Program-made: the position numbers and the translations under genes
Shown: positions 4,801 to 53,210 of the stretch, one piece after another
Numbering within the stretch: position 1 is the stretch's first letter
How the letters are laid out: every line of letters starts with the position of its first letter
Source of the DNA: an uncultured bacterium
GTDB lineage: Bacteria; Omnitrophota; Omnitrophia; Omnitrophales; Abzuiibacteriaceae
Assembly: GCA_964387845.1 (NCBI GenBank)
Contig: CAYLXA010000010.1
Location: 32,001 to 96,000, forward strand
Direction: 5' to 3'
DNA: 64,000 nucleotides
Notes under the pieces: generated by a model
Databases searched by the model: none
Told to the model about the DNA's origin: nothing
Seen by the model: the letters and a program-made list of their open reading frames with translations, nothing else

Positions 4801-7800
4801 CAATTTGATTTGAGCGGCGGTCAAGTGCAACAATCGCTGAGCCCACTTCAGGATCTTCCCTATTTAACCGATGTGGTGCAACATGCAGGTATGCGGTATT
4901 TCCAAAAATAGAGTTCGGCCAATCTTGCGTAAAAAGTTGATAGGGTTTTTGATTGATCGTCACTTCTCCTAATAAATTGCCCGCTTGATAAACAAGCTCT
5001 CCTGTCTTGATATCCACAACACCTATACCGCTCAAAGGCGCATGCGAATCAAGAATTAAATGATCCTGATTCGAGCGTAAATATCTCACATATTGAAATA
5101 ATTTCGCATTACGTTCATAAACACCTTCTTTTAGTTTGTCAGTACGCAAATGACCGCTGACAGGATCCAAGGCATAAACTTTAGAGGAGCCCAATCCTGT
5201 GAAAAATAAAACGCCTTGAGTGAAGGTGATAAGCGGCGTTGAAACTATTTCATCGGGAAATACTTGCTTCAAATCGAGAACGCCTTTTTCAAATTTGGCA
5301 TGATCTGGCTTTCCGTCACTCATCCGAAACGCGTGAATATAAGCCTGGCCTTTCCGGGCTCTGTCATCAACCGGATGGACATCTGTCTTTCGATAATAAG
5401 CAGCATACAAAGTTTGTCCATCTTCGCTCACGGCCAACGAGTTAATCCGTGCTTCCGGGTCAATCTTTTTAACCTCGTCCGACAAATTTAAACGTCCGTT
5501 CGACCACTTTTCAGACATTAATGCTTTGCGATCTAAATCAACTGCTAAAATGTCACCCGTGAACGAAGTCAAAATGTAAGCCGCATTTCCTCTGGCCACC
5601 ATTTCACGAGGCATGTCCTGAGACGAGATATGAAAGAATCTCTCATTATTTTGCCGCAACTCGGAGCGGGTTTCGGGCTTCGCTTCCATTAGTTTTTTAA
5701 TTTGAGCGCGTGCTTCTGCAATCATTTGATCCGTAATTTCACCCTGCTCTTTGCCGAGCGCCCCCAAGATTTTCGAATCTAAATTGCTTTTTTGGCTGAG
5801 TTCTAAACTGTCATAACCGATGTCTTTTTTCAATTGAACGATCTTTTTATAATTAGAAAAGGTGCGAAGAAAATTAACAACCGGATCCAGCGAGACATGC
5901 TGCCCATCGTCAGTTGCATAAGATCCCAGCAAATCCAGAGTGGTTGTTGCAATCATCAATTCAATTGCCTGGTTAAATTGATCTTCGCCGCGGATGCCTG
6001 CCTGCTCAAATTCCTGCCTTAATTTCTCCAATTGTTGAGCACGATGAATCGAAAACGCAAAAATGTGATGTTTAATGATTAATTTCAAAAGCGCATTGCT
6101 TGAAACGTCCATTTCACCGAAGTGAATATGATTGTCACTTAACACGCGAAATGATTCGAGTTCATGGCCCGGAAATGAATGGTCTCCATTCTCTTTGAAC
6201 TGCATTTTGGTTTTCTTGCCGATATCATGAAGCACGATAAATGCTTCCAATATCGCGCGGTCTTTTGCATTCCAATCCTTAATCAGATTGATCGCATCTT
6301 TGGGCGCTGTAGTGTTTCGGTCAATTTGATTGAGTGCCGAGAGAATGGCTTGTAAATGGTCCTGAAGTTTAGCATTCTGGCCGCCTTCCCTATGAAACAG
6401 GCTGTGATAATGAGGCGTTTCCAAAAAATCCGCATATTGATCCGGAATGCCAGATAACTGTTTCACCAATTCATCCAATGCTGAAGCCGGCCCATACTGG
6501 CGCAGCTCGGAGCGCTGTTCTTTTATCCATTGCACCAAACGCCGATAGTCAGTAACGCGAAGCGACATGCGGGAATTTCCGGGATTCGGCGCTATGATAA
6601 ACTGGTCGGCGGTTCCTCGAACCTTTTGGTACACAAAGACGAGAAACATACCGTAAAACCCCTGTGATTCCGGAAGGCCCCGGGCAACCCAATCCGCTTC
6701 AAGAATTGACCTGAGGACATTTGCCTTGATGGTCAACTCGTCCGGTTCCTTGTTTGCATCTAATTGTGCGATGACGGATTGAAAATATTGCAGAACTACC
6801 GCGTTTCTCCGTTGACTTTGAAGATCATTCCCCAATCCTTCAAAAAGTTTTTGCGTAAAGCGCTGCGCATTACCCATTTGATTTAAATCACGGACCAATG
6901 CCCGATATTCGCGCCGGTAAGCAAGCCATTCGTCTTCCAAATGCATATCAACGGAGCGCACAACCTTCTTAAATGCTTCCGGACTTGTTATCAATGGCTC
7001 CATGTCTGATTTGCCATGCAATTGCTTAACAAAATCAATCAGATATTTCATGCCCTCATCTGCTTCTCTGGCCAATGCGGCATTGATCAAGTGCGTACCT
7101 TCATGGATCATGACATATTTAATAATCAGAGGTGGAAAATGAAGCGCGAAGTCACGATTGATAGTCACATGAGTCACGCTTCCGTCTAATGAAGTTTTTA
7201 TACGTGCATACGAATGCCTCTGCAAAGAGCTTAATAAAGTGTCATCGAGAACGGGATTTTTTTTAAATGCCTCGATAAATTTTAATGCTGTTTTTTGATC
7301 GTCTAGGTTTGAAATTTCGGAAGCAATTTTTTCAAGGCGGTCCACAACCGCTTGAATTTCAGGGAGAAATTCGGGAGTTCTGATCCACCGCAAGATAGGC
7401 CATGCAGCAAATAAAGCGGTTGTTCCTGCACCGATTATTATTTGCCTGCGGCTTGGCAGCCAAAATTTCTTAGCAGGCTCTTCGCTTTTTACTCCCTGAC
7501 GCCGCTCCTTATTTTTTCGTCCGTTCTCACTTGCGCGCAGCTCGGCGCGGGAATTTCCGCTTGGAAGCTTGATGTTAAATTCTGCGGCTGCGTGGGCCAG
7601 CGCACGGTCGCGGTGCTCTCCATACATCAAAGCTTCCCGATGATTGTTTAGGCCTTTTTTCTTCCGAATTCGCTTTGCTTTATGCACAGAAGCCCTGGTT
7701 GAGTACTTCAAAGAAAGCGGCGCTGCCGGAAGCTGAATGCCGAACCGTTTCGCAGCATTGTAAAGCGCCCTGTCCCGATGCTTGCCTCGGGTTAACTCGC

Positions 7801-10800
7801 GGGCATGACTTTTCCATTTCTTCTTCTCGCGTTTTTTTAACTCCCTGCGAACAGATCCTTCGGTTGGATACTCAAAGGGCACACCTCTTTTTCTTAATTC
7901 GGAACGATGATTAGAAACATGAACTTTTGAGCGAACGGGAAGCTGCTCTGATAAAACCGCTTCGAGCATTTGATCTTTAATCCACCAATGAATCGGGCCA
8001 TTTTGTTTTGTCCAATCACGAATCGCATAACCCACTTCCTTTTGAGCTCGAATAAATAAACTTTCCATATTCCCATTACCATTTTGTGCCCGCGCGATCT
8101 GCTCGGCGAGACCTCGATAAATTCTGGCCGGCTCGAACTGATTGCGCCCATTAGAAGATTGATTTTTCTGAAACGTCGAAACCGCTTCCTCAATGCCGAT
8201 ATGTGTCAACGCATTCTTGGCATTAAAAGATGCGGCGATTCGATCTATTTGCCTTTTCATTTTTCTAAAATATTTCTTCCACGAAACAAAAGCCGGTTTT
8301 TCTCCGGCGCGCCGGATATCGAGCCCCAGCAAGATGCGATTTTGAATCAATTCTCCTTCTGGAATTTGATCTAAATAAAGGCCGTATCGCCCCTCAAAAT
8401 TCTTTTCGTATTCAATTAATTCATCGCGCCAATCTTCAAGTTGTTTGGCATCAACGGCACCGATTAAATTTAGTTCATAAATCAGATGAAGAGCGCGGCC
8501 TGCAAGGCCCAACCACCTGACGGCGTGAAGTAATTCGGAAGATTGGGTGTGTTTTTTCGCTTTATTGAGCGAGCTTCGGATCTGAATTTTCAGAATTCTG
8601 GATTTTCTTTGGCGCCTGTCAAATTCTTCAAACTCATCTTGGCTCATAGTTGGCTCAATAATTAGTTTGGCATTTTTAAATAACTGCTTGAGCGCTCGAT
8701 CTTGATGCAAACCCCTCTCATCCGTCCATTGTTGCCATGTCTGCTCGGAGGATTTTGTCGGTGAAAGCGGCTTTCTATCCCGTCCGGCTTTCGTTATTTT
8801 AAGGTTTCCGGTCTCAGCCCAATAACCCAGCCGTTTTGCTTCAAGTTGAATCAGATATCGCTCGGTTCCCTCAAGCGGACCCGGAACAAATTTTTGAACA
8901 CCAACTAAACCACGGTCCGTCAGATAAGCACTATAAACAAAATCAACCAAATGGCCTTTTCGATCGGTCTTTGGATTGGTGCTATACAAATCGATCCGCT
9001 TTGTAAAAGTCCGGCCATCTTGCTTTTCTTGAACATTGCGAAACACCATGAAAAATCTTCGCGGCTTTTCCGGAGTACCTACGCCCGCCCACTTAGGCCG
9101 GAGCGGTATGAAAAACCTTGTGTTTTTTGGCTTTAAAAATATTCCTGTTTGATGGCGGTTATGGTTGTGGCTATGCGTTATGGTTTTTGGCTCAATGGGA
9201 AGCGGTTCCTCTCCCGTCTTGATCCACTGTTGTATGCGTCTTTGAAATTCTTCTTCATCTTTTAGAAATTGCTTGGTTTCCAAATCCACGTAAAACACGA
9301 CCTGATGCTCCGGTTTATTCGAAACTTTTCCGCGTGCGATTCTCCTCACCCGCCAATAAACATTCTGCTTGAATGAGAAAACGGTAATTTCTAGGTCATC
9401 CCGATTTGAAAAATATTGTGAGGGCAGATAGAGCCGGCGCATGTTTTTTGCTTTTGGTAAGGGGAAAAACACGGTATTGGCATATTTGCCTTTTCGGACA
9501 TGTTTTAAAACAGCCTCTTTCAAAATTCTAACGGCAGGAGGGCCGGATTCGCGTTGAAAAGTTAAATGAAAAAGTTCCTTGCGGACCTGTTCAAACTGAT
9601 CAGGAAAAATAATTCCTTGCTTAGGTTGAAAACCGGTTAACGCATCAAATTCGAGCGTTCCCACTGCAGGCCTGAAAGGAAGTAAATGAACCTGCATTTG
9701 CGGACGGCGTTTGTCATCCGCGGAATCCCGGGTCCATATGACGCGCGGTTCTCCGGTCGGATATTGAAAAAGAGCCCACTTAACCGGCACTTTTGCTTCA
9801 TGCAATTGGCCGTTTCGAAGATAAGAAAAGGATGTAATGAAAGGCGGTCGTCTTTTTTGTAGTCGCTGAAAAATACTATCCTGGTATGCATGAAGGCGCC
9901 GCGGGATCATAAAGCCGGAGGGTTGCGCCCGTTGGCCCATTAAAAAATCCCGTAAAAGCTGAGAACGCGAGCTATCGCGAACTTTGTTTGTGCGAAAATG
10001 GTCGGCCAATTCCATTTCCCGAATCAAAAACCGGTAACTCTCCTGAGGATCCACTTGAATTCCCAAACCTGCTTCGCCTCCGGTTGTGTTACCAATTTTC
10101 TGAGTTTGTGATGAAACATAAGAAATAAAACGGCCTTCCCCTGCCGCGGCCAATAATTTCTGTTCATCCCAATTGACCATGAATAAGCGCGGATCATCCG
10201 TTTTGAGGAGCGCTGAATGGCTTTCCGGTGACAGAAGCCAAGCACGCTCCAAAAGATCTGCCCGATCTAATAGTGCCGCTGTTGAAATCCGGCCAAGGCG
10301 AATAAAATCTGAAACAGTTATCTGATGCGCAAATAACTGACTCTCACGATATTGGCGTTCTTCATTCGAAAGCGAAGCCAGATAAGGAAGCGCGTCTGTT
10401 TGAGAAAGATCTTCTTCCTTTGAAATACGGCGCGACGAAGATGGGCGTGGCTTCGGAACGATTTGCATTGTTTCGCTATTTTGACGCAGCTCGGAGCGGG
10501 ATTGAGACTGTTTTTGGCGAATTAATTTCACGGCTTCACGAACGCTAACACCCTTGCCTCGCATATCCATGTAATCAAATGCTAAATCTGCGTTTCCGTT
10601 GCTTAATTTCCAGGCAATAAACGCATTAATCACCGCATACGGATACATCCATCCTTGTCCTTTGTCTGTTAATGGATTCGGATCAAAGACACCGAAATTT
10701 TGCCGAGTCATTCCAATGGCATTTTCTTCTGCATATTCGTAAGCTTTATCGCCGGCTTCCCTGAGACTTCGGTCCAATTCTGCAGGCAATTGATCAACAT

Positions 10801-13800
10801 ACATCATCATTACTTCCCCGATACTGGTACCTTTATTGAAATTTCCTTTTACATATTTTTCAAAGAAAGATTGTTTTAATATATTGAGATCCCCTTTACT
10901 TTTTTGCAAGATTCTTAATGCGGCATAACCTTCGGCAAGTAACGCATCGTTATCAATATATTTCAAACCAGATCTAAGTTTTTTTCCAAATTTATGCGTC
11001 AATTCGTGAGCAATTAGAAGACGGAGTCCCCACCCAGAGCCCATGCGTTTTAATTCGTTAGGATTAATTCGAATTCCATAATCAAATCCCGTGGCAAGCG
11101 TGTCGGGAAGCATTGCCACAGCAGTCGGTTTATTTTTAATCCAGATTGTTACGCCGACAGCAGCCAGACCGATAGCAGCAAAACCAAATAAAAAATCACG
11201 ACGTGTTAGTTTTTGTTTCGATTTAGTTTTATTTTTTCTTTCTAAGAAATATTTGAGGGAAAATATTGAGAAAATTCCGCTCAACAATGATAAGAAAATG
11301 GATAAGAATGTTAGGTATGCTTTTGGCTGCTCGATTGCAACCCCTATTGAGTCTGTTAAACGATTAATCAATTCTTCTTTTTGTTGCACAGATAAATCAA
11401 CGGCGTAACGATTTATAAAAAACTCAACTTCTTCCCGTACAATTTTTCTCTGTTCTTGGTCTAATTGAAAAACAAACGGTTTGTTCGATTCGCGCAACTC
11501 GGAACGGGATTTTCTCAAATCTATGTCAAGTAAATGCTGCAAAGCTAATCTCACCTTCTCTTCTTCCATGCCATCCAACTCTTGAAGTTGCCGGTCTGTA
11601 AATGCTTGGATCAAGCGTGCCATGGCTATGGACCGTGTAGAAAATTGATGCAGGTAATCATCAACGATCTGTTTTTGTTTTGCGCTTACTTGTTCCATCG
11701 AAATTTCGTTACGAGGAGGAAGGTTAAATGGATTTGGCGAACTATCATTTTGATTTAAATCATCGTAAGCTTGCCACAGAGCTCCGTTCTTACCGTAAAA
11801 ATATTTGCCCCACAATTGCATTCTGATATCTGAAACTTCCTTCCATTCTTTGTCGGCATCATTGATATCGGTTTCAAAAACGTATGGCGCTTTTTCCTCA
11901 TTAATTCCAATCGACGCCTCAAGCGGACCAAAAATAAGCGCCCCAGATTCAGAATCGACAGTGTTAAGGCCTTCTTGAACATAGCCATGCAGGGTATGAT
12001 TCATGAGCCAATTGAAATAATCATGCACAACTTGATTAAATCTCTTCGCACTCATTGATCTTCCATTCCAATGCTCTGCGAGAAGCCTGTCAAAAGCGCT
12101 TTTCTCTCTCGACGCGCCATTTTCTATAGGTTCTGAACGCAGCTCGGCCCTTGAGCCGAGCGGGCTCAAGGACGGCTTCGGCATCGCAGCTCGTTGCGGC
12201 AAAGTCCGAGCCGCCCTTTGTTGCAGCAGTTCCGACTTCGAATCGGCTGGAGTCGAAGTACGGACAGTCCTCAACTCCGCTCGAGCTGAGGACTCAGCGT
12301 GGACGGGGTTTAAATTAGGTGCTTTTTTTACAATTTTATTATCGCTATTTTTTATATTGACAAAGCCCTGATTGTTTGATATAAAAAAAGTCCCTTCGCG
12401 CGCAAACTTTAGGAAAGAAGAGAAAATACGATGACCAAAATTCCAAAGCCCGGCTCCGAATATTCTGAAGAGCGTGAATTCCGCGTCATTTTGGAGCATC
12501 TTGAAAGCCAGTTCCGTACTTTTGGTGAGGGGATGAACCGGATGGAACAAAAACTTCAAAAACTGGACGGCATTGATCGCAGACTGACTAGCGTAGAAGA
12601 AGATGTTGGATTGATTAAGGTCAATCTTAAACAAATTAATATTGATCTTAGAGAAGTCAGAGGTGATATCATGGTTCTGAAAACTGACGTTAGAGTCTTG
12701 AAAAGCGCTTTCAAACCATTCACCGCCCAAGTTTCCGATCACGAGCACCGGATTTCCGCTCTTGAGCGTTCCCGTTAAACGCAATTCCGATCGACTTAAA
12801 GGTAGCTGCAATACCTTCGTGATATGATTTTCAACCCATGGCCATAATTCTTTTGTGATAGATTTGAAATAATCGGAAGAAACTTGATACGGGCGCGCGC
12901 CAAACTGGATCTGATTGGCCAAATCAACCAAATCTATTAAGTGCCGCGCATCGGCTCCGATGAGATAGAAAAGAAATAAGTATTCCTGGGCAATTGTCAA
13001 ACCACCTTTATTTTGCCGACTAATGACCAGGAATGCGTGATATCTCAAAGATTCTTCCAAGATCACCTCTGGATTCCCTTTTGAATCAAACAAGCGAGCT
13101 TGTTTGATCCTTTGATTGAACAATGCCGTGTTGCGCTTTTGCTTTAATGCGTTTTCTATAAACAACGGGTGATACAAATCTTGATTGTATGCCCAGTGCA
13201 GAAAACGGAATTGGCTGAAACTCTCGTAAAATTCGGATGAAATATTTTCAGCAGCTAATCTTGAGATATCGGATAAATGTTTAACTGCAAAATTGGGAAT
13301 TCCTGATTTTTGAGGCCACCTTCTTTCTCCTAACGGAATTTTCTGAAATTCTTGCATAACACCTTGTAATTCTGAAACATTTTTCGGCATCCAATTTTTT
13401 GATTTTGACAAATAATGAACCCCATAAGCTTCCCTGACAATGACAGATGCCAAGTTTTCAACAAAATAATCCTCGGCATATGGAAATTGGTTAATCAATT
13501 TCACGGAATCAAAAAAAGATTTCACGTTGATTTCTAAATCGATTTTTCCGTTCTCATCAATTGTTTTTTGAAAATGAATCCCCAAATTAGCTGCTTCCTG
13601 CGGCAGCAGTTTAGCCTGTTTGACTAATTCGGAGTAATTCTTAAGAATGTCAGTATTCGGATATCCTTTGGCAATTAACCAGTCGATTGTTTTTTGAATA
13701 GCGTTTTGAACACTTGCTAAATCGGCACGCGAAAGTTGAATCTCGTCCATCAGGGATTTATTTTGTTTAAAAGATTTTCGAACGGCGTAAATCGTACCTG

Positions 13801-14236
13801 CTATCAATGAACCGCTGACGGTTAAGCCTAGCCCATATTTAATAACGGTTCTTCGTGATAAATCCGTTCCTCCTTTTGTCTCTTTTGTTTTATCTTTTTC
13901 TTTTGTTCTCAGCTCGGACTTCTTTTGAGTATTTCGTATCTCGTGAAACGTATCTCGGTGCAGCGGCTCAGCGTGGTTTGCTTCGGGATTCGTGACCCGC
14001 GTATCGTGTTTCGCAACCGATTCACGATTCACGAACGACGATTCACTGGATTGATTTTGCACCAAACTTCTCAACTCGGAAAGTGCGGCGGGAGAATTGG
14101 CGGTGAGGCGCGGGACGTTCAGCGACGGAACGGAGGAAGCATAGGAATTAGGAATGGACGGAGATAGTCCGATGGTGTTCTGGATTGAAAAGCAGAAGAT
14201 GATCAGAATCGCGGTAATTTTAAGGTATTGCTTCAA
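1892..14236 (-). CDS. Giant (4114 aa) modular membrane-anchored polyprotein. It has an N-terminal signal peptide, several TM helices, a SAM-methyltransferase-like module, an HD-domain module, two HExxH zincin-like motifs and a propeller-like region, all separated by a recurring [RK][SA]ELR motif
   Basis: The reading frame stays open for 12,345 nt, which cannot happen by chance. The start is probably TTG at 14236, preceded by AGGAAA. The N-terminus MKQYLKITAILIIFCFSIQNTIG is signal-peptide-like. Motifs seen: VLEIGTARDG...DLIIASSVLYW (class I SAM-MTase), FIVLHDIGKK...HEL...KHH (HD), AHELTHKFG and IHEGTHLIN (HExxH). Seventeen [S/A]ELR motifs are spread through the protein. Confidence 0.75.
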   Translation of the reverse strand: MKQYLKITAILIIFCFSIQNTIGLSPSIPNSYASSVPSLNVPRLTANSPAALSELRSLVQNQSSESSFVNRESVAKHDTRVTNPEANHAEPLHRDTFHEIRNTQKKSELRTKEKDKTKETKGGTDLSRRTVIKYGLGLTVSGSLIAGTIYAVRKSFKQNKSLMDEIQLSRADLASVQNAIQKTIDWLIAKGYPNTDILKNYSELVKQAKLLPQEAANLGIHFQKTIDENGKIDLEINVKSFFDSVKLINQFPYAEDYFVENLASVIVREAYGVHYLSKSKNWMPKNVSELQGVMQEFQKIPLGERRWPQKSGIPNFAVKHLSDISRLAAENISSEFYESFSQFRFLHWAYNQDLYHPLFIENALKQKRNTALFNQRIKQARLFDSKGNPEVILEESLRYHAFLVISRQNKGGLTIAQEYLFLFYLIGADARHLIDLVDLANQIQFGARPYQVSSDYFKSITKELWPWVENHITKVLQLPLSRSELRLTGTLKSGNPVLVIGNLGGEWFESAFQDSNVSFQNHDITSDFSKININLFKIDLNQSNIFFYASQSAINAVQFLKFLFHPVHPLTKSTELAFKMLQNDAEFTLFRIFGAGLWNFGHRIFSSFLKFAREGTFFISNNQGFVNIKNSDNKIVKKAPNLNPVHAESSARAELRTVRTSTPADSKSELLQQRAARTLPQRAAMPKPSLSPLGSRAELRSEPIENGASREKSAFDRLLAEHWNGRSMSAKRFNQVVHDYFNWLMNHTLHGYVQEGLNTVDSESGALIFGPLEASIGINEEKAPYVFETDINDADKEWKEVSDIRMQLWGKYFYGKNGALWQAYDDLNQNDSSPNPFNLPPRNEISMEQVSAKQKQIVDDYLHQFSTRSIAMARLIQAFTDRQLQELDGMEEEKVRLALQHLLDIDLRKSRSELRESNKPFVFQLDQEQRKIVREEVEFFINRYAVDLSVQQKEELINRLTDSIGVAIEQPKAYLTFLSIFLSLLSGIFSIFSLKYFLERKNKTKSKQKLTRRDFLFGFAAIGLAAVGVTIWIKNKPTAVAMLPDTLATGFDYGIRINPNELKRMGSGWGLRLLIAHELTHKFGKKLRSGLKYIDNDALLAEGYAALRILQKSKGDLNILKQSFFEKYVKGNFNKGTSIGEVMMMYVDQLPAELDRSLREAGDKAYEYAEENAIGMTRQNFGVFDPNPLTDKGQGWMYPYAVINAFIAWKLSNGNADLAFDYMDMRGKGVSVREAVKLIRQKQSQSRSELRQNSETMQIVPKPRPSSSRRISKEEDLSQTDALPYLASLSNEERQYRESQLFAHQITVSDFIRLGRISTAALLDRADLLERAWLLSPESHSALLKTDDPRLFMVNWDEQKLLAAAGEGRFISYVSSQTQKIGNTTGGEAGLGIQVDPQESYRFLIREMELADHFRTNKVRDSSRSQLLRDFLMGQRAQPSGFMIPRRLHAYQDSIFQRLQKRRPPFITSFSYLRNGQLHEAKVPVKWALFQYPTGEPRVIWTRDSADDKRRPQMQVHLLPFRPAVGTLEFDALTGFQPKQGIIFPDQFEQVRKELFHLTFQRESGPPAVRILKEAVLKHVRKGKYANTVFFPLPKAKNMRRLYLPSQYFSNRDDLEITVFSFKQNVYWRVRRIARGKVSNKPEHQVVFYVDLETKQFLKDEEEFQRRIQQWIKTGEEPLPIEPKTITHSHNHNRHQTGIFLKPKNTRFFIPLRPKWAGVGTPEKPRRFFMVFRNVQEKQDGRTFTKRIDLYSTNPKTDRKGHLVDFVYSAYLTDRGLVGVQKFVPGPLEGTERYLIQLEAKRLGYWAETGNLKITKAGRDRKPLSPTKSSEQTWQQWTDERGLHQDRALKQLFKNAKLIIEPTMSQDEFEEFDRRQRKSRILKIQIRSSLNKAKKHTQSSELLHAVRWLGLAGRALHLIYELNLIGAVDAKQLEDWRDELIEYEKNFEGRYGLYLDQIPEGELIQNRILLGLDIRRAGEKPAFVSWKKYFRKMKRQIDRIAASFNAKNALTHIGIEEAVSTFQKNQSSNGRNQFEPARIYRGLAEQIARAQNGNGNMESLFIRAQKEVGYAIRDWTKQNGPIHWWIKDQMLEAVLSEQLPVRSKVHVSNHRSELRKRGVPFEYPTEGSVRRELKKREKKKWKSHARELTRGKHRDRALYNAAKRFGIQLPAAPLSLKYSTRASVHKAKRIRKKKGLNNHREALMYGEHRDRALAHAAAEFNIKLPSGNSRAELRASENGRKNKERRQGVKSEEPAKKFWLPSRRQIIIGAGTTALFAAWPILRWIRTPEFLPEIQAVVDRLEKIASEISNLDDQKTALKFIEAFKKNPVLDDTLLSSLQRHSYARIKTSLDGSVTHVTINRDFALHFPPLIIKYVMIHEGTHLINAALAREADEGMKYLIDFVKQLHGKSDMEPLITSPEAFKKVVRSVDMHLEDEWLAYRREYRALVRDLNQMGNAQRFTQKLFEGLGNDLQSQRRNAVVLQYFQSVIAQLDANKEPDELTIKANVLRSILEADWVARGLPESQGFYGMFLVFVYQKVRGTADQFIIAPNPGNSRMSLRVTDYRRLVQWIKEQRSELRQYGPASALDELVKQLSGIPDQYADFLETPHYHSLFHREGGQNAKLQDHLQAILSALNQIDRNTTAPKDAINLIKDWNAKDRAILEAFIVLHDIGKKTKMQFKENGDHSFPGHELESFRVLSDNHIHFGEMDVSSNALLKLIIKHHIFAFSIHRAQQLEKLRQEFEQAGIRGEDQFNQAIELMIATTTLDLLGSYATDDGQHVSLDPVVNFLRTFSNYKKIVQLKKDIGYDSLELSQKSNLDSKILGALGKEQGEITDQMIAEARAQIKKLMEAKPETRSELRQNNERFFHISSQDMPREMVARGNAAYILTSFTGDILAVDLDRKALMSEKWSNGRLNLSDEVKKIDPEARINSLAVSEDGQTLYAAYYRKTDVHPVDDRARKGQAYIHAFRMSDGKPDHAKFEKGVLDLKQVFPDEIVSTPLITFTQGVLFFTGLGSSKVYALDPVSGHLRTDKLKEGVYERNAKLFQYVRYLRSNQDHLILDSHAPLSGIGVVDIKTGELVYQAGNLLGEVTINQKPYQLFTQDWPNSIFGNTAYLHVAPHRLNREDPEVGSAIVALDRRSNQIDQTQFENGLLHFPKDYLPLALSVEGSTMHVAGYVTSRRDIFMSSIDLQENQGAAKSAPAHNEVPGSDINRKARAELRGEEDVMISSGTAPLILHGLREIDSLKKDYWKGKRVLEIGTARDGSILEWLRQKGADVIVADIDENAVQFAKERFGASAVQADILDLSQFADQQFDLIIASSVLYWALITNHAETKQHYRNLDDEAVWDYVREEGMPILQLKPGIEIWSTERASRAARSIRRILKPKGIFATTFYNQLEGAWDSPTGRIRADHRMPETIFQKFIDGGLQVMKTIKNEQGQALFFGIASLKSELRKDNQRPKTLDSSLVMRDSWLGTATRTASSTDVNLTSTTASLASTRSIRTANPLTPSAMAEMSFRKDSTSAPTSLAVNSRSTILNSPFQFVREEDFLISNKRGPVNIENSDNKIVEKAPMANHSRPDDAKSELRAKSNADFIPNFDNPKWKTYTVKLNNPYSPRDPVLLQIVRAGRQNYQILVGFDEGYGYESTGSVGFYLDSNKLITSQFKPFDNFSANYYHKWSKQKIAKVIMAWIAQAAYQTNRTIESGFTGNLRLVNLREKFFADEVWVKNNQPDEYGQWEPLKAIGYHHFNHQIFGRIEVYVQENSRHKWRLIELDGDGLPDRVYRVINGWDLRFVYIDGKGNIYKFVQGRRGSKVGVLDDWQNYGALSHRGKPRPDRKLSRTKEPPTYNKKVFPRGGHQRRLKTETGVSREKRRRSSRSKLRFSDPKSAALAKLVIPPSSELRVINQENNISDVSFESLTWESVIAPEIKGRAANSANQFEEAYATLPHSSIQEAVSLTAGQSEAIETDDNQTIIVYGVAPGMLENLPIAYAGATVMRKSGPVVIFGGTQMQASFLKNHFFRDDNANHSVNIVTRTNATTVLKGITGNNIKFVLYGVEGKDEHFADQLRSELRNVQFESRLESPDQLTTRFGVDQIAESLRSELRAAWAQLTAA
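3558..3586 (+). promoter_or_regulatory. Consensus sigma70 promoter (TTGACA, 17-nt spacer, TATAAG) driving the nested antisense small ORF A
   Basis: TTGACA lies at 3558-3563, the spacer gggccccgtttatttga is 17 nt, and TATAAG lies at 3581-3586. An AAGGAG RBS sits at 3612-3617 and the ATG at 3627. An AT-rich UP-like tract lies upstream. Confidence 0.55.
3627..3863 (+). CDS. Small ORF A (78 aa) nested antisense inside the giant gene; paralog of ORF B
   Basis: It has a perfect promoter and RBS. The protein MVEREFTAREVGALVESFRNDISAIAEGVSG...LTSVEDAV...NHESRITKLESKVFGR shares EREF, ESFR, LTSVE(D/E)D/A and HE.RI..LE with ORF B. The stop codon abuts an RSELR-encoding motif of the giant gene. Confidence 0.5.
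   Translation: MVEREFTAREVGALVESFRNDISAIAEGVSGLAVRMDRVEARLAVVEVKLTSVEDAVRVAVPNHESRITKLESKVFGR
4215..4540 (-). other. SAM-dependent methyltransferase-like module within the giant ORF
   Basis: Encodes GKRVLEIGTARDGSILEWLRQKGADVIVADIDENAVQFAKERFG...FDLIIASSVLYW, matching Rossmann motif I and post-I of class I methyltransferases. Confidence 0.6.
5900..6420 (-). other. HD-domain (metal-dependent phosphohydrolase) module within the giant ORF
   Basis: The H...HD...H...H pattern is present as LQDHLQA, FIVLHDIGKK, FPGHELES and KHHIF. Confidence 0.55.
7091..7115 (-). other. HExxH motif (IHEGTHLIN), candidate zincin metallopeptidase site in the giant ORF
   Basis: The motif is read directly from the translation. 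No further family assignment is possible without an HMM search. Confidence 0.4.
10988..11020 (-). other. HExxH motif (LLIAHELTHKFGKK), candidate zincin metallopeptidase site in the giant ORF
   Basis: The motif is read directly from the translation and resembles ImmA/IrrE- or SprT-like minimal zincins. Confidence 0.4.
12357..12385 (+). promoter_or_regulatory. Consensus sigma70 promoter (TTGACA, 17-nt spacer, TATAAA) driving the nested antisense small ORF B
   Basis: TTGACA lies at 12357-12362, the 17-nt spacer is aagccctgattgtttga, and TATAAA lies at 12380-12385. An AGGAAAGAAGAG RBS precedes the ATG at 12431. About 36 of 40 nt upstream are identical to copy A (tacaattttattatc[a/g]ctatttt[c/t]tatattgaca). 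Confidence 0.55.
12431..12778 (+). CDS. Small ORF B (115 aa) nested antisense inside the giant gene; paralog of ORF A
   Basis: The protein is MTKIPKPGSEYSEEREFRVILEHLESQFRTFGEGMNRMEQKL...LTSVEEDV...DHEHRISALERSR. It is coiled-coil-like and homologous to ORF A. The stop codon abuts an SELR-encoding motif on the opposite strand. Confidence 0.5.
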   Translation: MTKIPKPGSEYSEEREFRVILEHLESQFRTFGEGMNRMEQKLQKLDGIDRRLTSVEEDVGLIKVNLKQINIDLREVRGDIMVLKTDVRVLKSAFKPFTAQVSDHEHRISALERSR

Positions 14237-20436: not shown

Positions 20437-20488
20437 TTTTTGTGACTCGTGGTTCGCGAATCGTGAATCGATGCACGAATCACTAAGT

Positions 20489-21580: not shown

Positions 21581-21592
21581 GATTTTAGAGCT

Positions 21593-21666
21593 CCAAGCTA
21601 CAAGCTGCATGCTACAAGCTGTACAATCTTCAAAAACTTGAAGCCTGAAGCTTGTAGCCTGTGGCG
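21593..21666. repeat. Palindromic intergenic repeat (CAAGCTACAAGCTGCA ... CTTGAAGCCTGAAGCTTGTAGCCTG) between leuB and asd; same family as 53138..53210
   Basis: The arms gctacaagctg and cagcttgtagc are inverted. The 3' arm is nearly identical to the reverse complement of gctacaagctgcaagcttcaggcttcaag at 53141-53170. Confidence 0.6.
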
Positions 21667-21667
21667 A

Positions 21668-22741
21668 TTATTTTGTTATTCGTTCACAAACCAATTTTCC
21701 CATTTCCTGACAACCAACCAGTTTCATTCCTTCACTAAAAATATCTGCGGTGCGGTAACCGTCGTCTAAAACTTTCTTCACAGCCGCTTCAACGTGAAGT
21801 GCCAAATCATTCAAGTCAAATGAATATCGGAGCATCATCGCGCACGACAAAATCGTCGCGAGCGGATTGGCTTTGTCTTTACCGGCAATATCCGGCGCAG
21901 AGCCATGAACCGGCTCATAAAGCGCGTGATGATCACCGATGCTGGCTGACGCGAGCATGCCGATTGAGCCGGTGAGCATGGATGCTTCGTCGCTCAAAAT
22001 ATCGCCGAAGAGATTCGTGGTCACGATCACGTCGAATTGTTTGGGATCGCGGACAAGCTGCATCGCGCAATTGTCCACATACATGTGTGACAACTGGACA
22101 TCCGGAAACCGTTTTCCGAGCTGCATGACGACTTTGCGCCAAAGTGCGCTTGATTCTAAAACGTTTGCTTTGTCGACGGAACAAACTTTGCGTTTGCGTT
22201 TGCGCGCAAGCTGAAATGCTCTTTGCGCAATCCGTTCAATCTCCGAAGTGGAATATACTTCGGTATTGAATCCTTTTTCCGAACCGTCTGAATTTTTCTC
22301 GATTCCTTTCGGCTTTCCAAAATAAATGCCGCCTGTGAGTTCGCGCACAACCATGATATCGGTTCCGCGCACCACATCCGGCTTCAAAGTAGAAGCAGAA
22401 ATCAGGCTGTCGTAAATCATCGCCGGGCGGAGATTGGCGTAAAGCCCGAGTCCGCTGCGGATACCGAGAAGGCCCGCTTCGGGCTTTTTATCGTGTTCCA
22501 AATTTTCCCATTTAGGGCCGCCGACCGCACCGAGCAAAACGGCGTCTAAATCTTTCGCCACTTTTAAAGTTTCATCCGGCAAAGGAATTCCAAACTGATC
22601 GATCGCAACACCGCCGATCAAAGCTTCCTTGAATTCGAAGTTCAGGTGAAACGTTGAAGCCACATGCTTCAAAATTTTCACGCCAACTTGTACGACTTCT
22701 GGCCCGATTCCATCGCCCGGGAGAGCAAGCACTTTATACAT
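21668..22741 (-). CDS. leuB: 3-isopropylmalate dehydrogenase
   Basis: [17 protein letters not shown]... and the [20 protein letters not shown] signature identify it. Confidence 0.95.
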
Positions 22742-22742
22742 A

Positions 22743-22772
22743 GGGGTAAGGATTAAGGGGTAAGGGATAAGC
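22743..22772. repeat. Left inverted repeat (GGGGTAAGGATTAAGGGGTAAGGGATAAG) flanking the four-helix-bundle gene
   Basis: It is the reverse complement partner of 23176-23212 (cttaatccttacccctgaatccttaatccttaatcc). Confidence 0.6.
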
Positions 22773-23121
22773 TTTTGCGAAGTCCGGAAAGCATTCTTCC
22801 GATTTCGTTACAGTAGTTAATAAGCATTTCATAATGTTCATGATCAACATAATTTAAATCCCTGCTTAAAAGTAATAAATATTTGGTTTCTTCAAGTGAA
22901 GAATTCGACAAATTCAGAAAATGCAAATAATCTTTTGTACTTTTTCGTTTTTGTCCTTCTACAATGTTTGTGGCAATCGAAACTGTGCTTCTTCGTATTT
23001 GAGAAATAATTCCAAATTTTTCATCATTTGGAAAACGTTTCGTTAACTTATAAATTTCTAAAATTAAAGTGTGAGATTTTTGCCAAACTTTTAAATCTTG
23101 AAATGTTTCTATCCTATACAT
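22753..23121 (-). CDS. Four-helix-bundle protein (23S rRNA intervening-sequence protein family, TIGR02436/PF05635)
   Basis: The product [56 protein letters not shown] matches this family very closely. Confidence 0.85.
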
Positions 23122-23169
23122 ACACCCTCCATGAATTTTATTTGTTATTCGTGGAGGGAAATTGTTTTA

Positions 23170-23967
23170 CTACTTAATCCTTACCCCTGAATCCTTAATC
23201 CTTAATCCTTCTTGTGGGCTCGAGGCAACCGCGTAATCCTTAATAGGAATGCGGCCCGCCCAATAAGCCTTGCGGCCCGCAGAAACAGCTTCCTTCATGG
23301 CTTCTGCCATCAAAACCGGATTATCCGCGCAAGCGATTGCGGTATTCATCAAAACGCCGTCGGCGCCGAGCTCCATACAAACAGCCGCATCCGATGCGGT
23401 ACCAACACCGGCATCCACGATGACCGGAACCGACACAGCTTCTTTAATAAATTGAATGTTCAGGCGATTTTGGATTCCGCGGCCCGAACCAATCGGTGCC
23501 GCAAGAGGCATGACACACGCAGCGCCGGCTTCTTCCAATTTTTTCGCCACAACCAAATCATCCGTTGTGTAAGGCATCACCGTAAAACCCTCCTGAACTA
23601 AAATTTTTGTCGCTTCCAGAAGTGAAACCACGTCCGGCAAAAGTGTTTTTTTATCGCCAATCACTTCGAGTTTAACCAAATCACCAAACCCTGCAGCGCG
23701 CGCAAGCCGTGCGATCCTCAGAGCATCTTCTGTGTTATAAGCACCCGCCGTGTTCGGCAGGATTAAATATTTGCCCCGATCAATATAGTCTAAAAACGAT
23801 TTTTCGGCTTTGTTGCCAAGCGGAACGCGACCGATCGCGACCGTCACCATATCGCAGCCGGATGCTTCAAGCGATTGCGTCATATCATCAAACGTGCGGT
23901 ACTTGCCGCTGCCCGTGATGAGCCGTGATTTCAAAGTATATTTTCCGATTTTCAATTCATCGTTCAT
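23170..23967 (-). CDS. thiG: Thiazole synthase ThiG
   Basis: [29 protein letters not shown]...TVAIGRV follows the ThiG TIM-barrel pattern. The last ~10 codons (..[10 protein letters not shown]) are encoded by the inverted-repeat sequence. Confidence 0.9.
23176..23212. repeat. Right inverted repeat flanking the four-helix-bundle gene; overlaps the thiG 3' end
   Basis: AATCCTTA/GGGGTAAGG units inverted relative to 22743-22772. Confidence 0.6.
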
Positions 23968-25424
23968 TTCACACCAATCGATTTCCGTTCCACTTTTTGA
24001 TAAAGATCAACATACTTTTGTGCGCTGGTATGCCACGAAAAATCCTCTTTCAAGCCGTTTGCCATTAAAACCGACCACTGTTTTTGATCTTTGTAAAGTC
24101 TCGCCGCGCGGTGCATGGTCTGCAACAAAGCGTCCGGCGTGTAATCTGAAAATGAAAAGCCGTTTCCCTGCCCAGTTTTCGGGTCAAACTCAGAGACCGT
24201 ATCCGCAAGCCCGCCGACTTCGCGCACAAGAGGCACAGTTCCGTATCGAAATGAAATCATTTGCCCGAGCCCGCACGGTTCAAACCTGGACGGCAATAAA
24301 AATACATCGCAGCCGGCATAAATCCGCTTTGAAAGCGCAACATCAAAAGTAATATTGGATCGTATTGAGCCGGCATAGCGCTCTGAAACGCGGCGAAGAC
24401 GCTCCTGATAAGTCTCATCACCCGAACCAAGCAAAATAAGCTGCCAGCCTTCGCGCGCAATTTCTTCCAGAATCGGCTCCAAAAGATCGACGCCCTTTTG
24501 ATCCGTCAGCCGGCCCACAAATCCAAAAAGAGGCGCTTTTGAATCCTGTGCCAATCCGCTTTCTTTTTGGAGCGCGGTTTTGCAAGCTGACTTTTTCGCA
24601 ATTGATTTCGCATCAAAATTTTGCGCGATTTCCGGATCGTGCGCAGGGTCCCAGTCCGACAAATTGATGCCATTCAGGATCCCGTACAAATCATTTTTCC
24701 GTTCCGCCAAAACGCCTTCCATGCCGCAGCCGAATTCTTTTGTCTGAATTTCCTGGGCATAGCGTTCGCTGACGGTCGTCAAAACATCCGAATAAACGAG
24801 TCCGCCTTTCATAAAGCTAAGCTTTCCGTAAAATTCCAAACGGTCGTGCCGGAATTCATCCCACGAAATCCCGGTAGTTGAAATCGAGTCCGGCGGAAAA
24901 TTTCCCTGATACGCTAGATTGTGAATCGTAAAAACAGTTTTTGTGTTCGAGAAAAAGGGGTCTGCGCGGTACAGCGTTTTCAAAAACACCGGAACCAAAC
25001 CGCTTTGCCAGTCGTTGCAATGAATAATGTCCGGCCGGATTTTCAACTTTTTCATGGCCTCGAGCGACGCGCGCTCGAAAAACGCAAAACGTTTGTCGTT
25101 GTCCGGATAATCACCTTTGGGCGTCCCGTAAAGACCATCCCTATCAAAAAACGAAGGCTCATCAATCAAAAATACGTTGATTTGATCGAAGCGGGCCGAA
25201 AACACGCGGCCGGTTTCAACATCCGAACCCAGCGGAATGTGCAAAGGCTCATAAACTAATTTGAAGGGATGTTTCTGCTCCGAAATAATTTTATACTTGG
25301 GCAAAAAAACCGATACCGAGTGGCCGAGCTTTGCAATTTCGTGCGGTAAAGTTCCACCGATATCGCCTAACCCGCCCGTTTTGGCGAACGGCGTCATTTC
25401 TGAAACAACAAAGACAATTTCCAC
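23964..25424 (-). CDS. glgA: Glycogen (starch) synthase GlgA
   Basis: [27 protein letters not shown]... carries the KTGGL motif of the GT5 family. Confidence 0.9.
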
Positions 25425-34123: not shown

Positions 34124-34516
34124 TTAGGCAGATTTTCTGGTCGTCGCGAATCCTAAAAACCGGGAAACCAAAGTCGTTTCCACAGAAAATGCGGAATTGC
34201 GCCGAAGAGATTCAAAACTAGCGTCGGCCTTGGCTTGTACGTCACGATTCAGCATATCGCTCAAAGCCGGCAGCATATCGTCCGCACGCGCCTCAACCGA
34301 AATTGATTTTGTCCGAATCTCCTCAATTTCATACTTCGCTGATTCAGGCTGTAATGCTTCGGTTGTAATATTGATGCCGGCCGAATGAGAAGCGCCCGGC
34401 AAAATAATCTGCGGATTGAATACTTCGGCTTCGTGAATCGGCTGAGCAAACATAGGCTGGCCGAATATAAAGACACATACCAATAAAATCTTAAGGAACT
34501 TAATCGGGTTTTTCAT
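34124..34516 (-). CDS. Hypothetical small secreted protein
   Basis: Signal peptide MKNPIKFLKILLVCVFIFGQPMFA. No recognisable family. Confidence 0.4.
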   Translation of the reverse strand: MKNPIKFLKILLVCVFIFGQPMFAQPIHEAEVFNPQIILPGASHSAGINITTEALQPESAKYEIEEIRTKSISVEARADDMLPALSDMLNRDVQAKADASFESLRRNSAFSVETTLVSRFLGFATTRKSA

Positions 34517-34968
34517 CTTCTCTTATCCTTTCTGGTTCTGCCCGAGCTCACTTCAAGCAAAGGCATAAGAGAAGAAACGGTGGGATTTATTTCAGCGTCT
34601 CTTTCAAAATGCCCCTCTGAGAATCTTTCGAAAAAGAATCTCTCAGAAGGGCTTTGAAAGAGTCCTTCTAAGAAGATTGGCAACCCAGCCTTCCTCACCC
34701 GTCCGTGTAGGAACCGTGGCTTTGCGTCACCGGATTACTCCCCCGCTAAACTGAATAGCGAGTCCGCCAAGATTTGTGGCGGAAGTTTTGCCTTTTTCAG
34801 ACCTCCTAAAATGTGAGCTTTCAACGAGCAACTTGCTTAATAAAAAGGTGCCCCATGACTTTTTTAATGTCAAGAGTAACACCCCTCTTTTTTCAATACA
34901 AAAGGGAGTTATTTTAACGCTTAAATATGTATGTAAGTCATTAATATATAATGACTTACATCAATTTA

Positions 34969-37900
34969 TTAGGAGAATAATGCGGGTTGTCTGCGAGTCG
35001 ACCACTGAGGAAAAAGAGGAGATAACAGTTGGCTGACATCAATTCCTAAGCCGGCAAATCCTGAAAAAACAGGCGGAACCGGCGGAATATTGGGAAAAAG
35101 GAGGTTTCCGTTAAAAAACACATTTCCGGAAGGCTCATTGGGGCCGCCTAAATCGAAATTCAGGTCGGTATTCGGATTCACTAATTCACCATTAATATCA
35201 CCGTCGATGCTAATCGATGTACCGCCGCCATCTTGGCCGCCTGCGATTGTGGTCAGAACCGCACCGTTATTAATATCAACATCGATGCCGTCACCGGTGA
35301 CGCCAATCGTACCGCCTGCTGTTATACTGGAATCGGATCCGGCCGTAATATTATTCGCTGCACCGTTTCCATCCAGGACATTTCCGGTTGTGGCTTCAAT
35401 CATCACACTGCCATTGCCGGCATTAATGGTTCCTAAAATAAGGTCACCTGTCGGCGTAATCACGCAAATATCGCCATTCGCAACGGATGAATTGGCATTG
35501 ATCGTCGCCCCATCGGCCTCCATGATGAAAATACCGCCGGTTTGGCTGATCGCGTTGATCGTATTCGCTGCGGTATTCATTTTATTGAGAAGTGTTCCGA
35601 CCGAATTTCCAAAAAATTCAATATTGCTGCTCGTAATCACCGTTCCGATATTTCCGTCATCAAAAACATTGCCTGCTTGCGCCGTAAAACTCGCTGAGTT
35701 GGTCGTGTTCACACTGCCGACGGTGATATCGCCCGCCGTTGTGGTCAATGAAAAATCAGAATAACCGTTGATGCCTGTTGCCGAAGAAGCGCCGCCTGCT
35801 GTTGCGGTGACTGAGCCATTGGTCAAAAAGTTAGCGCCCGTAAAATTCATCCCGTTCAAACTGTTCATCGCAATGTTGCCATTCGCCGTGCTTTGAGCCA
35901 CAAATGAATTCACATTAAAATCAATGTCGCCGTTTGCAAGTGCAGAACCAATATTCCCAAGCGCCGTCAAGGAAAGTGAATTTGCATTAATCCGCGTTGA
36001 TTGCACAAAATCATCCACGATATTTCCGCCGGATGCGGTCAATGTTACATCGCCGTTGCCGGCATTGATACTTTGCAACGCCGCATCACCCAGAACCATA
36101 TCGCCTGTGGCGCTATTAATATTGATATCGCCATTCGCAGCCGAAGAATCCAAACCTTGAATGGTGACCGCGTCTAATTCATCAATAAAAATACCGCCGT
36201 TATTTGCAGTAATGCTGAGCGTAGCTGCTGCTGTGTTAATTTTGTTAGCAAGTGTCCCAACGGCATCTCCGATTAATGTGATGAGCCCGCCTGTGATTCT
36301 GGTAGCGTTGTTGGCGTCATCCACCAAATTTCCAGCTGCCGCCGAAAGCACCACATCACCCAAGCCTGCGTTGATGGTTCCAATGGTTAAATTGCCGAGT
36401 GTTGAAACAACATCAATCGTGCCATTTGCAGCCGAAGAATTCATATTGTTCAAAGTTGCGCCATTGGATTCACGCAAGAAAATGCCGCCGGCGTTTGCGG
36501 TTGCGTTCAATGTTGCTGCCGTCGTATTAATTCTCGCCGCCAAAGTTCCGATTGCATTTCCGACAAGCGTAATCACGTTGCCGCTTAAATTAGAAGTAGC
36601 ATCTACCAGATTTCCCGCGAGCGCTGTTAAACCGATATTTCCGGCTGTCGTGATAGTGCCAAGATTTAGATCGCCGGTTGTGGACGTCACATTGATATCG
36701 CCGGAACCCGTTGTGGCACCGACGGTCGCTCCGTTGGATTCTGTGACGTTGATTTCGCCTGTGCCGGTTCCTGTGATGTTAAGAGTTGTGGCCGTGGTAT
36801 TAATCGCAGCGCCTGATTGACCCACGTCACCGTCCGCGCCGCCTGCAATTAAGTTCACAATCACACCTGCAACACTGGAAGCCACGCCACCCAATAAGTC
36901 ACCTGCCAAAGCTGTTAAAGTTACATTGCCGGTTGTGGAGATGGTTCCAAGCGTTAAATCACCGGTGGTTGTTCTGACATCAATATTGCCGGAACCTGTC
37001 GTGGCGCCGACTGTCGCTCCGTTCGACTCTGTTACGAAAATATCGCCTGTGCCCGCACCGGTTAAGTTTAACGTGCCGGCCGTGGTCATAATTCGTCTCG
37101 TAGAAGTTCCGACATCACCGTCCGCGCCGCCCGCTGCGAGATTGACTGTAGTGCCGGTTACGGATGAATCCGCGTTCGTGTCGGTCACATCGCCATTTGA
37201 AGCAGCTAACGTCACTGCATTCGTAGCGCTCACGGTCCCGACTTCGAGATCACCCGAAGTGGTTGTCATGGAAAAATTTGTGTAGCCGGTTGCGCCGGTA
37301 ATGGACGAAGCACCCTCGGTTGTAACTGTCACAGACCCGGCGGTAACAAAATCAGCGCCCGTTAAAGTCGCGCCGCCGCCTGCGATTCTCGCAAAAATAT
37401 CACCATTACCAGAACTTGTCAGCGCTCCGACATTAGTAGTGGATGTGATATCCACGTCGCCATTCGCAGCTGATGAACCGATATTACTGGACGCGGTCAT
37501 GTTCACAGTTGAAGCAGAAACCGCCGTCGCTTGATTTCCGTCATCTAAAATGTGCCCGGCGTTGGCATTAACCGTCACCGTGTTTTCGGCATTCACAGTG
37601 CCAAGCGTCACATTACCGGTGGTTGCCGTTAAATCGATATTGTTTGTGCCGGTCCCGGTGGCAGAAGCATTGACGACCGTTAAATCACCGGCAGCCGTAA
37701 TAATAATTGAATCATTTACGGCAGATGCGTTGTTAACCGTCAGCGCCTGATCATTGGTAACGATAATTCGCCCATTGGCAGCAGCTGCATTCAGGGAGTT
37801 TGCACTAAGGTCAATATCGCGATTGCCGGTCGTTTGTCCGATATCCACCGCCGCATTGAGCGTTACTTCGTCGCCCGTAATTCGGGTTGCATCATCGTTA

Positions 37901-40167: not shown

Positions 40168-40185
40168 TAACACTCTTTCCTCTTG

Positions 40186-40215
40186 GATTTCCCTGAGTTC
40201 GGAAGCTGACTGCCA
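40186..40215 (-). promoter_or_regulatory. Conserved 5'-leader element of tpsA (TCAGCTTCCGAACTCAGGGAAATCC on the mRNA), copy 1
   Basis: Near-identical to 45449-45477 upstream of the second tpsA. It lies 20-50 nt upstream of the start codon. Confidence 0.45.
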
Positions 40216-40490
40216 TGACGGTTGCAACCGTTTTAGGCTCTTGAGTTTTGCCTCATTCTACGCTCAGTCGCTTACGCGCTGGGCTTCGAAGAGCTCTACG
40301 AAGCCAAGCCGCGAAGGACTTGGCGAAGTAGAGGCCTTACTCTTTCGAGTAATTTGCCTCCGCCATACAGCGTAGCGGATCCGCCACGCTTTGTGGCGGA
40401 CTTTCGTTCAGAGATAAGATGATAAAACTAAAAAAAATTTTACCATATTGAGAAGATATTGCAAAAATTAAGATAAAAAACAGATAAAAC

Positions 40491-53157: not shown

Positions 53158-53210
53158 GCTTCAGGCTTCAAGATTCCAACCTGCGGCTTGTGGCCTGCAG
53201 CTTGAAGCCG
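53138..53210. repeat. Palindromic intergenic repeat of the same family as 21593..21666
   Basis: tacaagctacaagctgcaagcttcaggcttcaag...cttgtggcctgcagcttgaagc, with inverted arms around an approximately 14-nt loop. Confidence 0.6.

Follow-up and report, generated by a model that had tools for sequence, protein, structure and literature searches.

A probable intervening-sequence-type stem-loop cassette, with a four-helix-bundle gene between inverted heptamer arrays, inserted between thiG and leuB of an Omnitrophota bacterium

The window analyzed here is a stretch of 64,000 nt from the Omnitrophota contig CAYLXA010000010.1 (GCA_964387845.1, positions 32,001-96,000), which is also locus L001 among the loci that we number L below. 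Its minus strand carries glgA (23964-25424), thiG, an open reading frame (ORF) for a 122-aa four-helix-bundle (4HB) protein, leuB and asd, in this order. We found that the 4HB ORF lies in an inserted segment of 462 nt, and this segment is probably a stem-loop cassette of the intervening sequence (IVS) type, in which one promoterless 4HB gene and a short leader are bounded by inverted arrays of 4-5 tandem heptamers, and whose host is an operon of protein genes, not an rRNA gene. An earlier note on this DNA had placed a TIGR02436-type gene between leuB and thiG, and the profile matches bear this out, since the ORF matches PF05635 over its full length (E 7.7e-40, 135.8 bits, cut-off 33.8) and TIGR02436 as well (E 9e-38, 128.8 bits, cut-off 24). 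The link of this family to rRNA IVSs, also made there, is documented in the literature (PMC4990558). The best solved relative of the protein is XCC0516 (PDB 2GSC, five chains; E 1.2e-16), and the PADLOC defence models gave no match.

The insertion is revealed by empty sites. The glgA-thiG-leuB-asd synteny is kept in about 25 Omnitrophota genomes, and in none of them is there a 4HB gene at the junction. In the close relatives L154-L158, whose ThiG is 95-98% identical to that of the window, thiG runs through ...CAGGAAGG TCTTTCCTTAAAGAAATAAy and is followed by CCTATG of the leuB start, so that ThiG ends with EGLSLKK* and the spacer is only 4 nt. When L156 was compared with the window by BLASTN, the homology halted at 23207 and picked up again at 22744, and L157 and L154 gave the same limits. 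Therefore, the segment between these limits is an insertion, which replaced 20 nt of the target, namely the last 20 nt of thiG. The ThiG Pfam match stops at residue 251 of 265. The comparison of C-termini with relatives lacking the insert, which the earlier note had proposed, supports its claim that the right repeat encodes the thiG end: the arm supplies the final 11 codons of ThiG in place of the native tail. Only short microhomologies are found at the junctions (AAGG on the left, CCT on the right). More distant relatives (67-80% ThiG identity) had pointed to EGLRIK as the native ThiG end, with only 7 residues added; we rejected this possibility, because the closer empty sites end EGLSLKK*. 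For the same reason, we regard as coincidental the resemblance to the cassette-free distant relative L005, whose ThiG ends EGLRIKS*.

The filled state is not restricted to the window, as L150 carries this cassette too, at the identical site. The ThiG of L150 ends ...RIKD*, because its arm keeps a TAA; relative to L150, a TAA to TCA change in the window adds 7 residues to ThiG and one more mismatch to the stem. Comparison of the two 4HB proteins gave a dN of 0.054 and a dS of 0.636 (dN/dS = 0.085), and the protein is thus under strong purifying selection. However, the flanks do not follow the presence of the cassette. Those of the window are closest to the empty L156 (89.7% at the thiG 3' end, 97.6% at the leuB 5' end), and this likeness reaches to about 30 nt from the cassette, whereas the flanks of the filled L150 are just 84% identical to the window. 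Because presence and absence do not track the flanks, gain or loss must have been limited to the element itself. The pattern is suggestive of allele conversion that affects the element alone, or of gain and loss at a specific site; homing-like allele conversion, repeated site-specific insertion and replacement by an empty allele are possible causes.

Both arms of the cassette are arrays of period 7 according to Tandem Repeats Finder, with 4.3 copies in the 3' arm and 5.4 copies in the 5' arm (Table 1). In the orientation of the gene, the 5' arm reads AAGGATT, AAGGATT, AAGGATT, CAGGGGT, AAGGATT, AAG and overlaps the end of thiG. The 3' arm and positions 23173-23202 form an inverted repeat of 30 nt with 83% complementarity (z = 8.6 against shuffled sequence). 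The flanking repeats of the earlier note are therefore real and its coordinates right to within 1-3 nt, and the left repeat adjoins the leuB start as it had said, with the ATG 1-2 nt from the arm. The unit pattern AAGGRKTAAGG has four matches in the 64 kb, where 0.08 would be expected, and every one of them lies within the two arms. As to whether the repeat is a common simple-sequence motif, which the earlier note had named as a point that would refute its view, the answer is thus divided: heptamer arrays as a class are common in the genome, but these units are found only in the cassette within the window. Upstream of the 4HB gene, the leader hairpin folds with -16.1 kcal/mol (z = -3.9). The same CCCTCC...GGAGGG hairpin is kept in a paralogous cassette and has been seen in this subclade only. 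This paralogue, in L151 (4920-5400), encodes a 4HB protein with 65% aa identity and lies between MoeB/ThiF-like and JAB-domain genes; its heptamers are different (TAAGTKR), and its sample, SRR15237813, also holds a contig that matches the window.

Table 1. Coordinates of the cassette, its neighbours and related features (positions in the window unless a locus is named)
Feature	Position	Strand	Basis or detail
Inserted cassette, whole, 462 nt (5' arm, leader, 4HB ORF, 3' arm)	22745-23206	-	BLASTN breakpoints against empty-site L156; same limits with L157, L154
5' arm, purine-rich, 5.4 tandem heptamers (AAGGATT / CAGGGGT units); codes for the new ThiG tail and the thiG stop codon region	23173-23210	-	Tandem Repeats Finder, inverted-repeat search, codon reading
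3' arm, pyrimidine-rich, 4.3 tandem heptamers; codes for the final 6 codons (SLSLTP) of the 4HB ORF and for its stop; the leuB ATG follows after 1-2 nt	22742-22771	-	Tandem Repeats Finder, inverted-repeat search
4HB gene, 122 aa (PF05635 / TIGR02436; IVS-protein / Avd superfamily)	22753-23121	-	Profile matches
Leader hairpin; CCCTCC, resembling an anti-Shine-Dalgarno sequence, pairs with the GGAGGG Shine-Dalgarno (23125-23130) of the 4HB gene	23125-23158	-	Inverted repeat and fold
thiG; native 3' end (5 codons and stop) swapped for arm-encoded sequence	23170-23967	-	Pfam, alignment to empty sites
leuB; begins right after the 3' arm, which took the place of any native ribosome-binding region	21668-22741	-	
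Gene-less heptamer hairpins and arrays, intergenic; units TCAAAAT, CGATTCA, AGCTACA, CAGAGAA	310-445; 14018-14046; 20442-20480; 21589-21661; 53139-53210; 53380-53464		
GxxExxY cassettes; arms abut ATG and stop	L129 1759-2154; L159/L161, L164, L166, L171/L173		Units of ~10 nt by eye, ACGCGAAAC-like

The same architecture recurs in most of the relatives of the gene that were sampled, in 80 fetched metagenomic loci whose encoded proteins are 42-65% identical to the query. When the flanks were scored for inverted repeats, 78% of 74 4HB genes scored 12 or more, compared with 2% of 737 control ORFs from these loci, and at a score of 15 the fractions were 65% and 0.5%. The array period was 7 in 64 of 97 arrays, while period 8 marks one protein clade, and the median array has 4.3 units (~31 nt). 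The unit sequence varies between protein clades and is common within a clade, and the complementarity of the arms follows this division: an arm scores 18.7 with its own partner, 17.0 with partners from other cassettes of the clade and 7.8 across clades. At some orthologous sites the units have changed in concert in both arms (L114/L090 vs L127). Among copies of the 8-mer clade in unrelated contexts, BLASTN homology spans exactly from one outer arm end to the other, ~432 nt, which identifies the arms as the ends of a discrete element. The earlier description of a cassette with terminal inverted repeats is accordingly supported across the sampled family; the arms are not classical transposon ends, though, as they consist of clade-specific tandem heptamer arrays.

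The placement of the cassettes is equally regular. The gene before the cassette runs in the same direction in 43 of 46 cases, and the gene after it in 40 of 49. Both lie close by, with medians of 1 nt from the stop codon upstream to the 5' arm and of 12 nt from the end of the 3' arm to the following start. In 55 of the 57 armed 4HB cassettes (among L070-L151 and the window), the 5' arm has more G than C, and because an inverted repeat reads the same on both strands, the G-rich strands of both arrays point inward, toward the gene. We considered that this polarity might come from the 5' arm serving as a Shine-Dalgarno array, and rejected it as a general rule, since by eye only about half of the units hold a Shine-Dalgarno core. 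Several cassettes with different units can share one sample. One locus, L076 (2356-3223), has two tandem 4HB genes, the second truncated or degenerate, with a purine-rich heptamer array before each and a single complementary array after the pair.

The closest known counterpart of the window cassette is the 23S rRNA IVS of Coxiella burnetii, a selfish element of 428-444 nt whose terminal inverted repeats pair into a 28-bp stem, with the S23p (4HB) ORF in the loop (PMC4990558). The PF05635 protein, the size (428-444 nt vs 462 nt) and the position of the ORF in the loop of a terminal stem of ~28 bp (30-nt arms in the window) are shared. The resemblance extends to the purine-rich tandem heptamers that form the 5' arm upstream of the ATG: Coxiella has 2-3 GACAGAT units directly before the S23p ATG, in a copy number that varies between strains, and RNase III cleavage at the first repeat (PMC4990558), while the window has 5.4 units. 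Elements of both types have been regarded as selfish or possibly mobile (PMC4990558). Three differences stand out. First, unlike the Coxiella IVS, the window cassette lies outside rRNA, between two protein genes of one operon, the first of which lost its native 3' end to the insertion; Rfam identified no rRNA in the window, none of the 20 related loci checked lies in rRNA, and around the armless homologues only two tRNAs were seen. Second, the window ORF is constrained, whereas the Coxiella IVS ORF is decaying and apparently not expressed. Third, RNase III cleavage has been shown for the Coxiella IVS, whereas in the window cassette the duplex is a predicted one. Because residence in rRNA fails, we regard the cassette as a new variant of the IVS kind rather than as an IVS member.

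At the RNA level, the arms pair in both the minimum free energy and the centroid folds (dG -109 kcal/mol, z = -4.8). A promoter scan of the gene strand revealed no promoter-like site, which is weak evidence, as the consensus used may not fit Omnitrophota promoters. Since no such site was seen, the cassette would be transcribed by read-through from the glgA-thiG transcript, and in that RNA the arms would zip into a duplex of ~26-30 bp around the whole ORF. RNase III cleavage is also proven for the rRNA IVS of Leptospira, which, like that of Coxiella, is identically built. By analogy with the IVSs of Leptospira and Coxiella, the arms of this promoterless selfish cassette outside rRNA probably form a stem that RNase III can cleave, which would free the cassette RNA and part the thiG and leuB cistrons. 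Ribosomes that stop inside the arms (those of thiG in the 5' arm, those of the 4HB gene in the 3' arm) might open the stem and couple translation to that of the next gene; such coupling may matter for leuB, because its ribosome-binding region was replaced. Additionally, the 4HB protein may bind its own arrays.

Several observations weigh against an IVS-type mobile cassette with an RNA stem. There is no target-site duplication, as the junctions GAAGG| and |CCTATG lack a direct repeat, and the cassette contains no transposase or other mobility enzyme, the 4HB gene being its sole ORF. The earlier note had called the insertion recent; the insertion is demonstrated by the empty sites, but its recency is only relative, since the two filled lineages, the window and L150, are separated by a dS of 0.64. 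Mismatches between arms are compatible with G.U pairing in 55 cases and with A.C in 61, so there is no G.U excess of the kind that would mark a sense-strand RNA helix as selected for; the arms could instead function as DNA, or as two separate arrays to which protein binds. Strict compensatory changes gave no clean signal among orthologous cassettes, because tandem arrays can shift register; only whole units were seen to change in concert. Cutting the operon mRNA between two biosynthetic genes could also be costly. Finally, the metagenomic contigs (L150, L156 and others) are short and could be strain mosaics, and the family statistics rest on ~80 loci at 42-65% identity, which are not the whole family.

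The missing G.U bias is in keeping with the main alternative, in which the arms are two opposed arrays of putative binding sites, roughly one heptamer for each subunit of a pentameric 4HB protein. In such a scheme, binding of the protein to its own arrays, in RNA or in DNA, would serve to autoregulate the cassette or to build a nucleoprotein complex that propagates or maintains it, like a transposase on terminal repeats or TRAP on GAG repeats. Binding by a pentamer would explain both the 4-5 units per arm and the clade-specific units. Consistent with this, the array length has a sharp mode at 4-5 units (median 4.3, ~31 nt) regardless of the unit, the arrays of Xanthomonas mostly have 4 units, and the solved homologues 2GSC and 2RLD both crystallise with five chains. 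The purifying selection on the protein, the strict inward polarity and the fact that the unit sequence follows the protein clade point in the same direction. However, the correlation between clade and unit is equally expected from common descent of the whole cassette, an arm of ~30 nt suits a two-turn RNase III substrate equally well, and the GxxExxY cassettes described below are built alike around an unrelated and presumably non-pentameric protein. We consider this alternative unlikely, though worth keeping in view; it is compatible with the mobile-cassette part of the interpretation that we prefer.

The arms might also belong to the host rather than to the cassette. Here, the heptamer hairpin would be an intergenic element, similar to repetitive extragenic palindromic (REP) sequences or terminators and common in Omnitrophota, which was at the thiG-leuB junction earlier, and the 4HB gene landed or stayed in its loop. 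The window is indeed rich in period-7 arrays: seven are strong, none was found at periods 5, 6 or 8-11, and gene-less heptamer hairpins occupy other spacers (Table 1). The more distant relatives L008 and L020 have gene-less heptamer hairpins in the thiG-leuB spacer itself, and rRNA IVSs do occupy hairpin loops (PMC4990558). But the closest empty sites have the 4-nt spacer with no hairpin, which largely refutes this idea at the present locus. Furthermore, AAGGATT-type units occur nowhere else in the window, the arms of the 8-mer clade fall within the homology block common to copies in different contexts, and the cassette arms follow the polarity rule, which the gene-less hairpins do not all obey. 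Taken together, a host origin of the arms is improbable.

The gene-less hairpins have features of their own. Those at 21589-21661 and 53139-53210 form one sequence family with ~71% column identity. The hairpin in the leuB-asd spacer (21590-21675) is an insertion of 86 nt that L156 and L157 lack, their leuB stop and asd start being at a distance of 1 nt, and it has a possible 5-nt AAAAT direct repeat at its ends; L154 has a different array in this spacer. Across 1.1 Mb of fetched DNA, the spacing of paired inverted arrays is mostly 5-60 nt (gene-less) or ~340-550 nt (gene-containing). The thiG-leuB spacer of another Omnitrophota genome, L011 (6870-6992), holds another palindromic repeat (GTCATTGCGAGG ... 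CCTCGCAATGAC), which is not made of heptamer arrays. In L093 (1805-2258), heptamer arrays lie within a coding region, for an E2-like lipoyl/E3-binding protein, and give peptide repeats of 7 residues (PETLKPETLKP).

Least probable is a reading in which the gene belongs, as the Avd accessory protein, to a diversity-generating retroelement or to what remains of one, with the repeats as unrelated simple sequence. There are weak matches to PF22296 bAvd (E 3e-12) and to NF033474, the NCBIfam Avd model, and the fold superfamily is shared, since Avd is likewise a four-helix bundle that forms pentamers, and it binds both nucleic acid and reverse transcriptase. But the score with NF033474 (59.3 bits) is below the equivalog cut-off of 80, no reverse-transcriptase domain was seen among the called genes within 6 kb on either side, nor were there template/variable repeats nearby, the gene is wedged between thiG and leuB, and the arms are highly non-random and family-wide.

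Comparison with other mobile systems likewise yields partial likenesses. REP-associated tyrosine transposases (RAYTs) with their REP doublets (REPINs), and miniature inverted-repeat transposable elements, resemble the cassettes in that a small gene lies between repeats in inverted orientation. As to copies of the repeat that form inverted doublets without a gene in other spacers of a genome, the picture is divided: such doublets were seen at the related loci L132 and L139, but no other array in the window uses the AAGGATT unit, although other heptamer hairpins are frequent there, for example the pair 21589-21661 and 53139-53210. Unlike RAYT elements, the cassette has no HUH/Y1 transposase, its only protein being a 4-helix bundle of PF05635 and not PF01797, and the ends of RAYT elements are a single REP palindrome, whereas the cassette arms are tandem arrays of short units. 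A top hit among the control ORFs in the flank analysis was such a known RAYT/REP arrangement, an IS200/RAYT-like Y1 transposase between inverted REP-like CCTTCGGGACG in L092 (6955-7533). With insertion sequences and their miniature derivatives the cassette shares terminal inverted repeats, but not a transposase, near-identical copies (there is one copy in the 64 kb) or a target-site duplication. Integron cassettes are similar as promoterless, co-oriented single-ORF units that are transcribed from upstream and conserve the structure rather than the sequence of their ends; unlike them, the 4HB cassettes lack an integrase, an attI platform and an attC restricted to the 3' end, their arms are symmetric, their neighbours are housekeeping genes, and they are scattered singly instead of arrayed.

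A second, unrelated family shares the build of the 4HB cassettes. Genes of the GxxExxY family (TIGR04256; PF13366, PD-(D/E)XK-like, ~130 aa) had inverted tandem-repeat arms at all five independent loci examined. A scan of viral contigs for GxxExxY cassettes found none, and the PADLOC models did not match this protein either.

Heptamer arrays without such genes are known from other bacteria. In Xanthomonas, (GGGAATC)n arrays mostly have 4 units, and ~70 convergent pairs lie inside operons (PMC4692102). Like the cassette arms, these arrays and the GGGGAYT arrays of Nostoc/Anabaena, known as short tandemly repeated repetitive (STRR) sequences, are intergenic, have ~4 heptamers, lie near the end of the upstream gene and are often paired convergently inside operons, with the G-rich strand inward (PMC4692102). 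One Xanthomonas array overlaps the start codon of XCC0516, the gene of the crystallised 4HB protein 2GSC, which thus shares the build of the cassettes at its 5' end; the study draws no link to the gene family and treats the repeats as G-quadruplex-forming simple repeats, not tied to 4HB genes (PMC4692102). Differences exist as well, in that most Xanthomonas pairs are gene-less, with 20-70 nt between the arrays, and the unit is uniform per genome there and clade-specific in the 4HB cassettes.

The locus presents an IVS-like element that is not tied to rRNA: a stem-loop cassette placed among the biosynthetic genes of an operon, for which alleles with and without the insert are cleanly distinguished and whose protein is constrained. 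To our knowledge, the nature and spread of IVS elements and of their conserved ORF have been an open question since the early 1990s. For the sampled part of the family, the architecture is a rule, with inverted tandem arms, fixed polarity, ~4 units per arm, a promoterless gene that runs in the direction of its host operon and a start at the upstream stop codon. In a search of the literature with incomplete coverage, we found no paper that states a general link between 4HB/IVS genes and heptamer arrays, only the single Coxiella case and the unconnected Xanthomonas study; as far as we found, neither the rule for the family, nor the second gene family, nor a connection to bacterial heptanucleotide repeats has been described. 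A wider proposal, which we hold only tentatively and consider doubtful as a whole, is that 4HB (TIGR02436) and GxxExxY (TIGR04256) genes are the coding cores of widespread, unrecognised promoterless mini-cassettes with inverted arrays of 7-12-nt units in operon spacers and rRNA helices, that gene-less derivatives of these gave rise to the heptanucleotide hairpins of Xanthomonas (GGGAATC), cyanobacteria (STRR) and Omnitrophota, and that the pentameric 4HB protein reads its own array with about one unit per subunit, driving homing-like spread or maintenance. RNase III processing of the operon mRNAs, binding of the pentamer to the arrays and cassettes as the source of heptanucleotide repeats can all be tested now. 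For annotation, it should be considered that the arms rewrite the C-termini of neighbouring genes, as in ThiG.

Some other features of the window were observed. Upstream of a 130-aa ORF (34124-34516), positions 34676-34802 of the minus strand match the c-di-GMP-I riboswitch RF01051 with 42.6 bits, above the gathering score of 35. Two giant ORFs are also on the minus strand, one of 1752 aa (34969-40227) and one of 4114 aa (1892-14236). The counterpart of the latter in L154 has 4159 aa and comes right after asd, while the window has several extra genes in between (pseudouridine synthase, ABC transporter parts).

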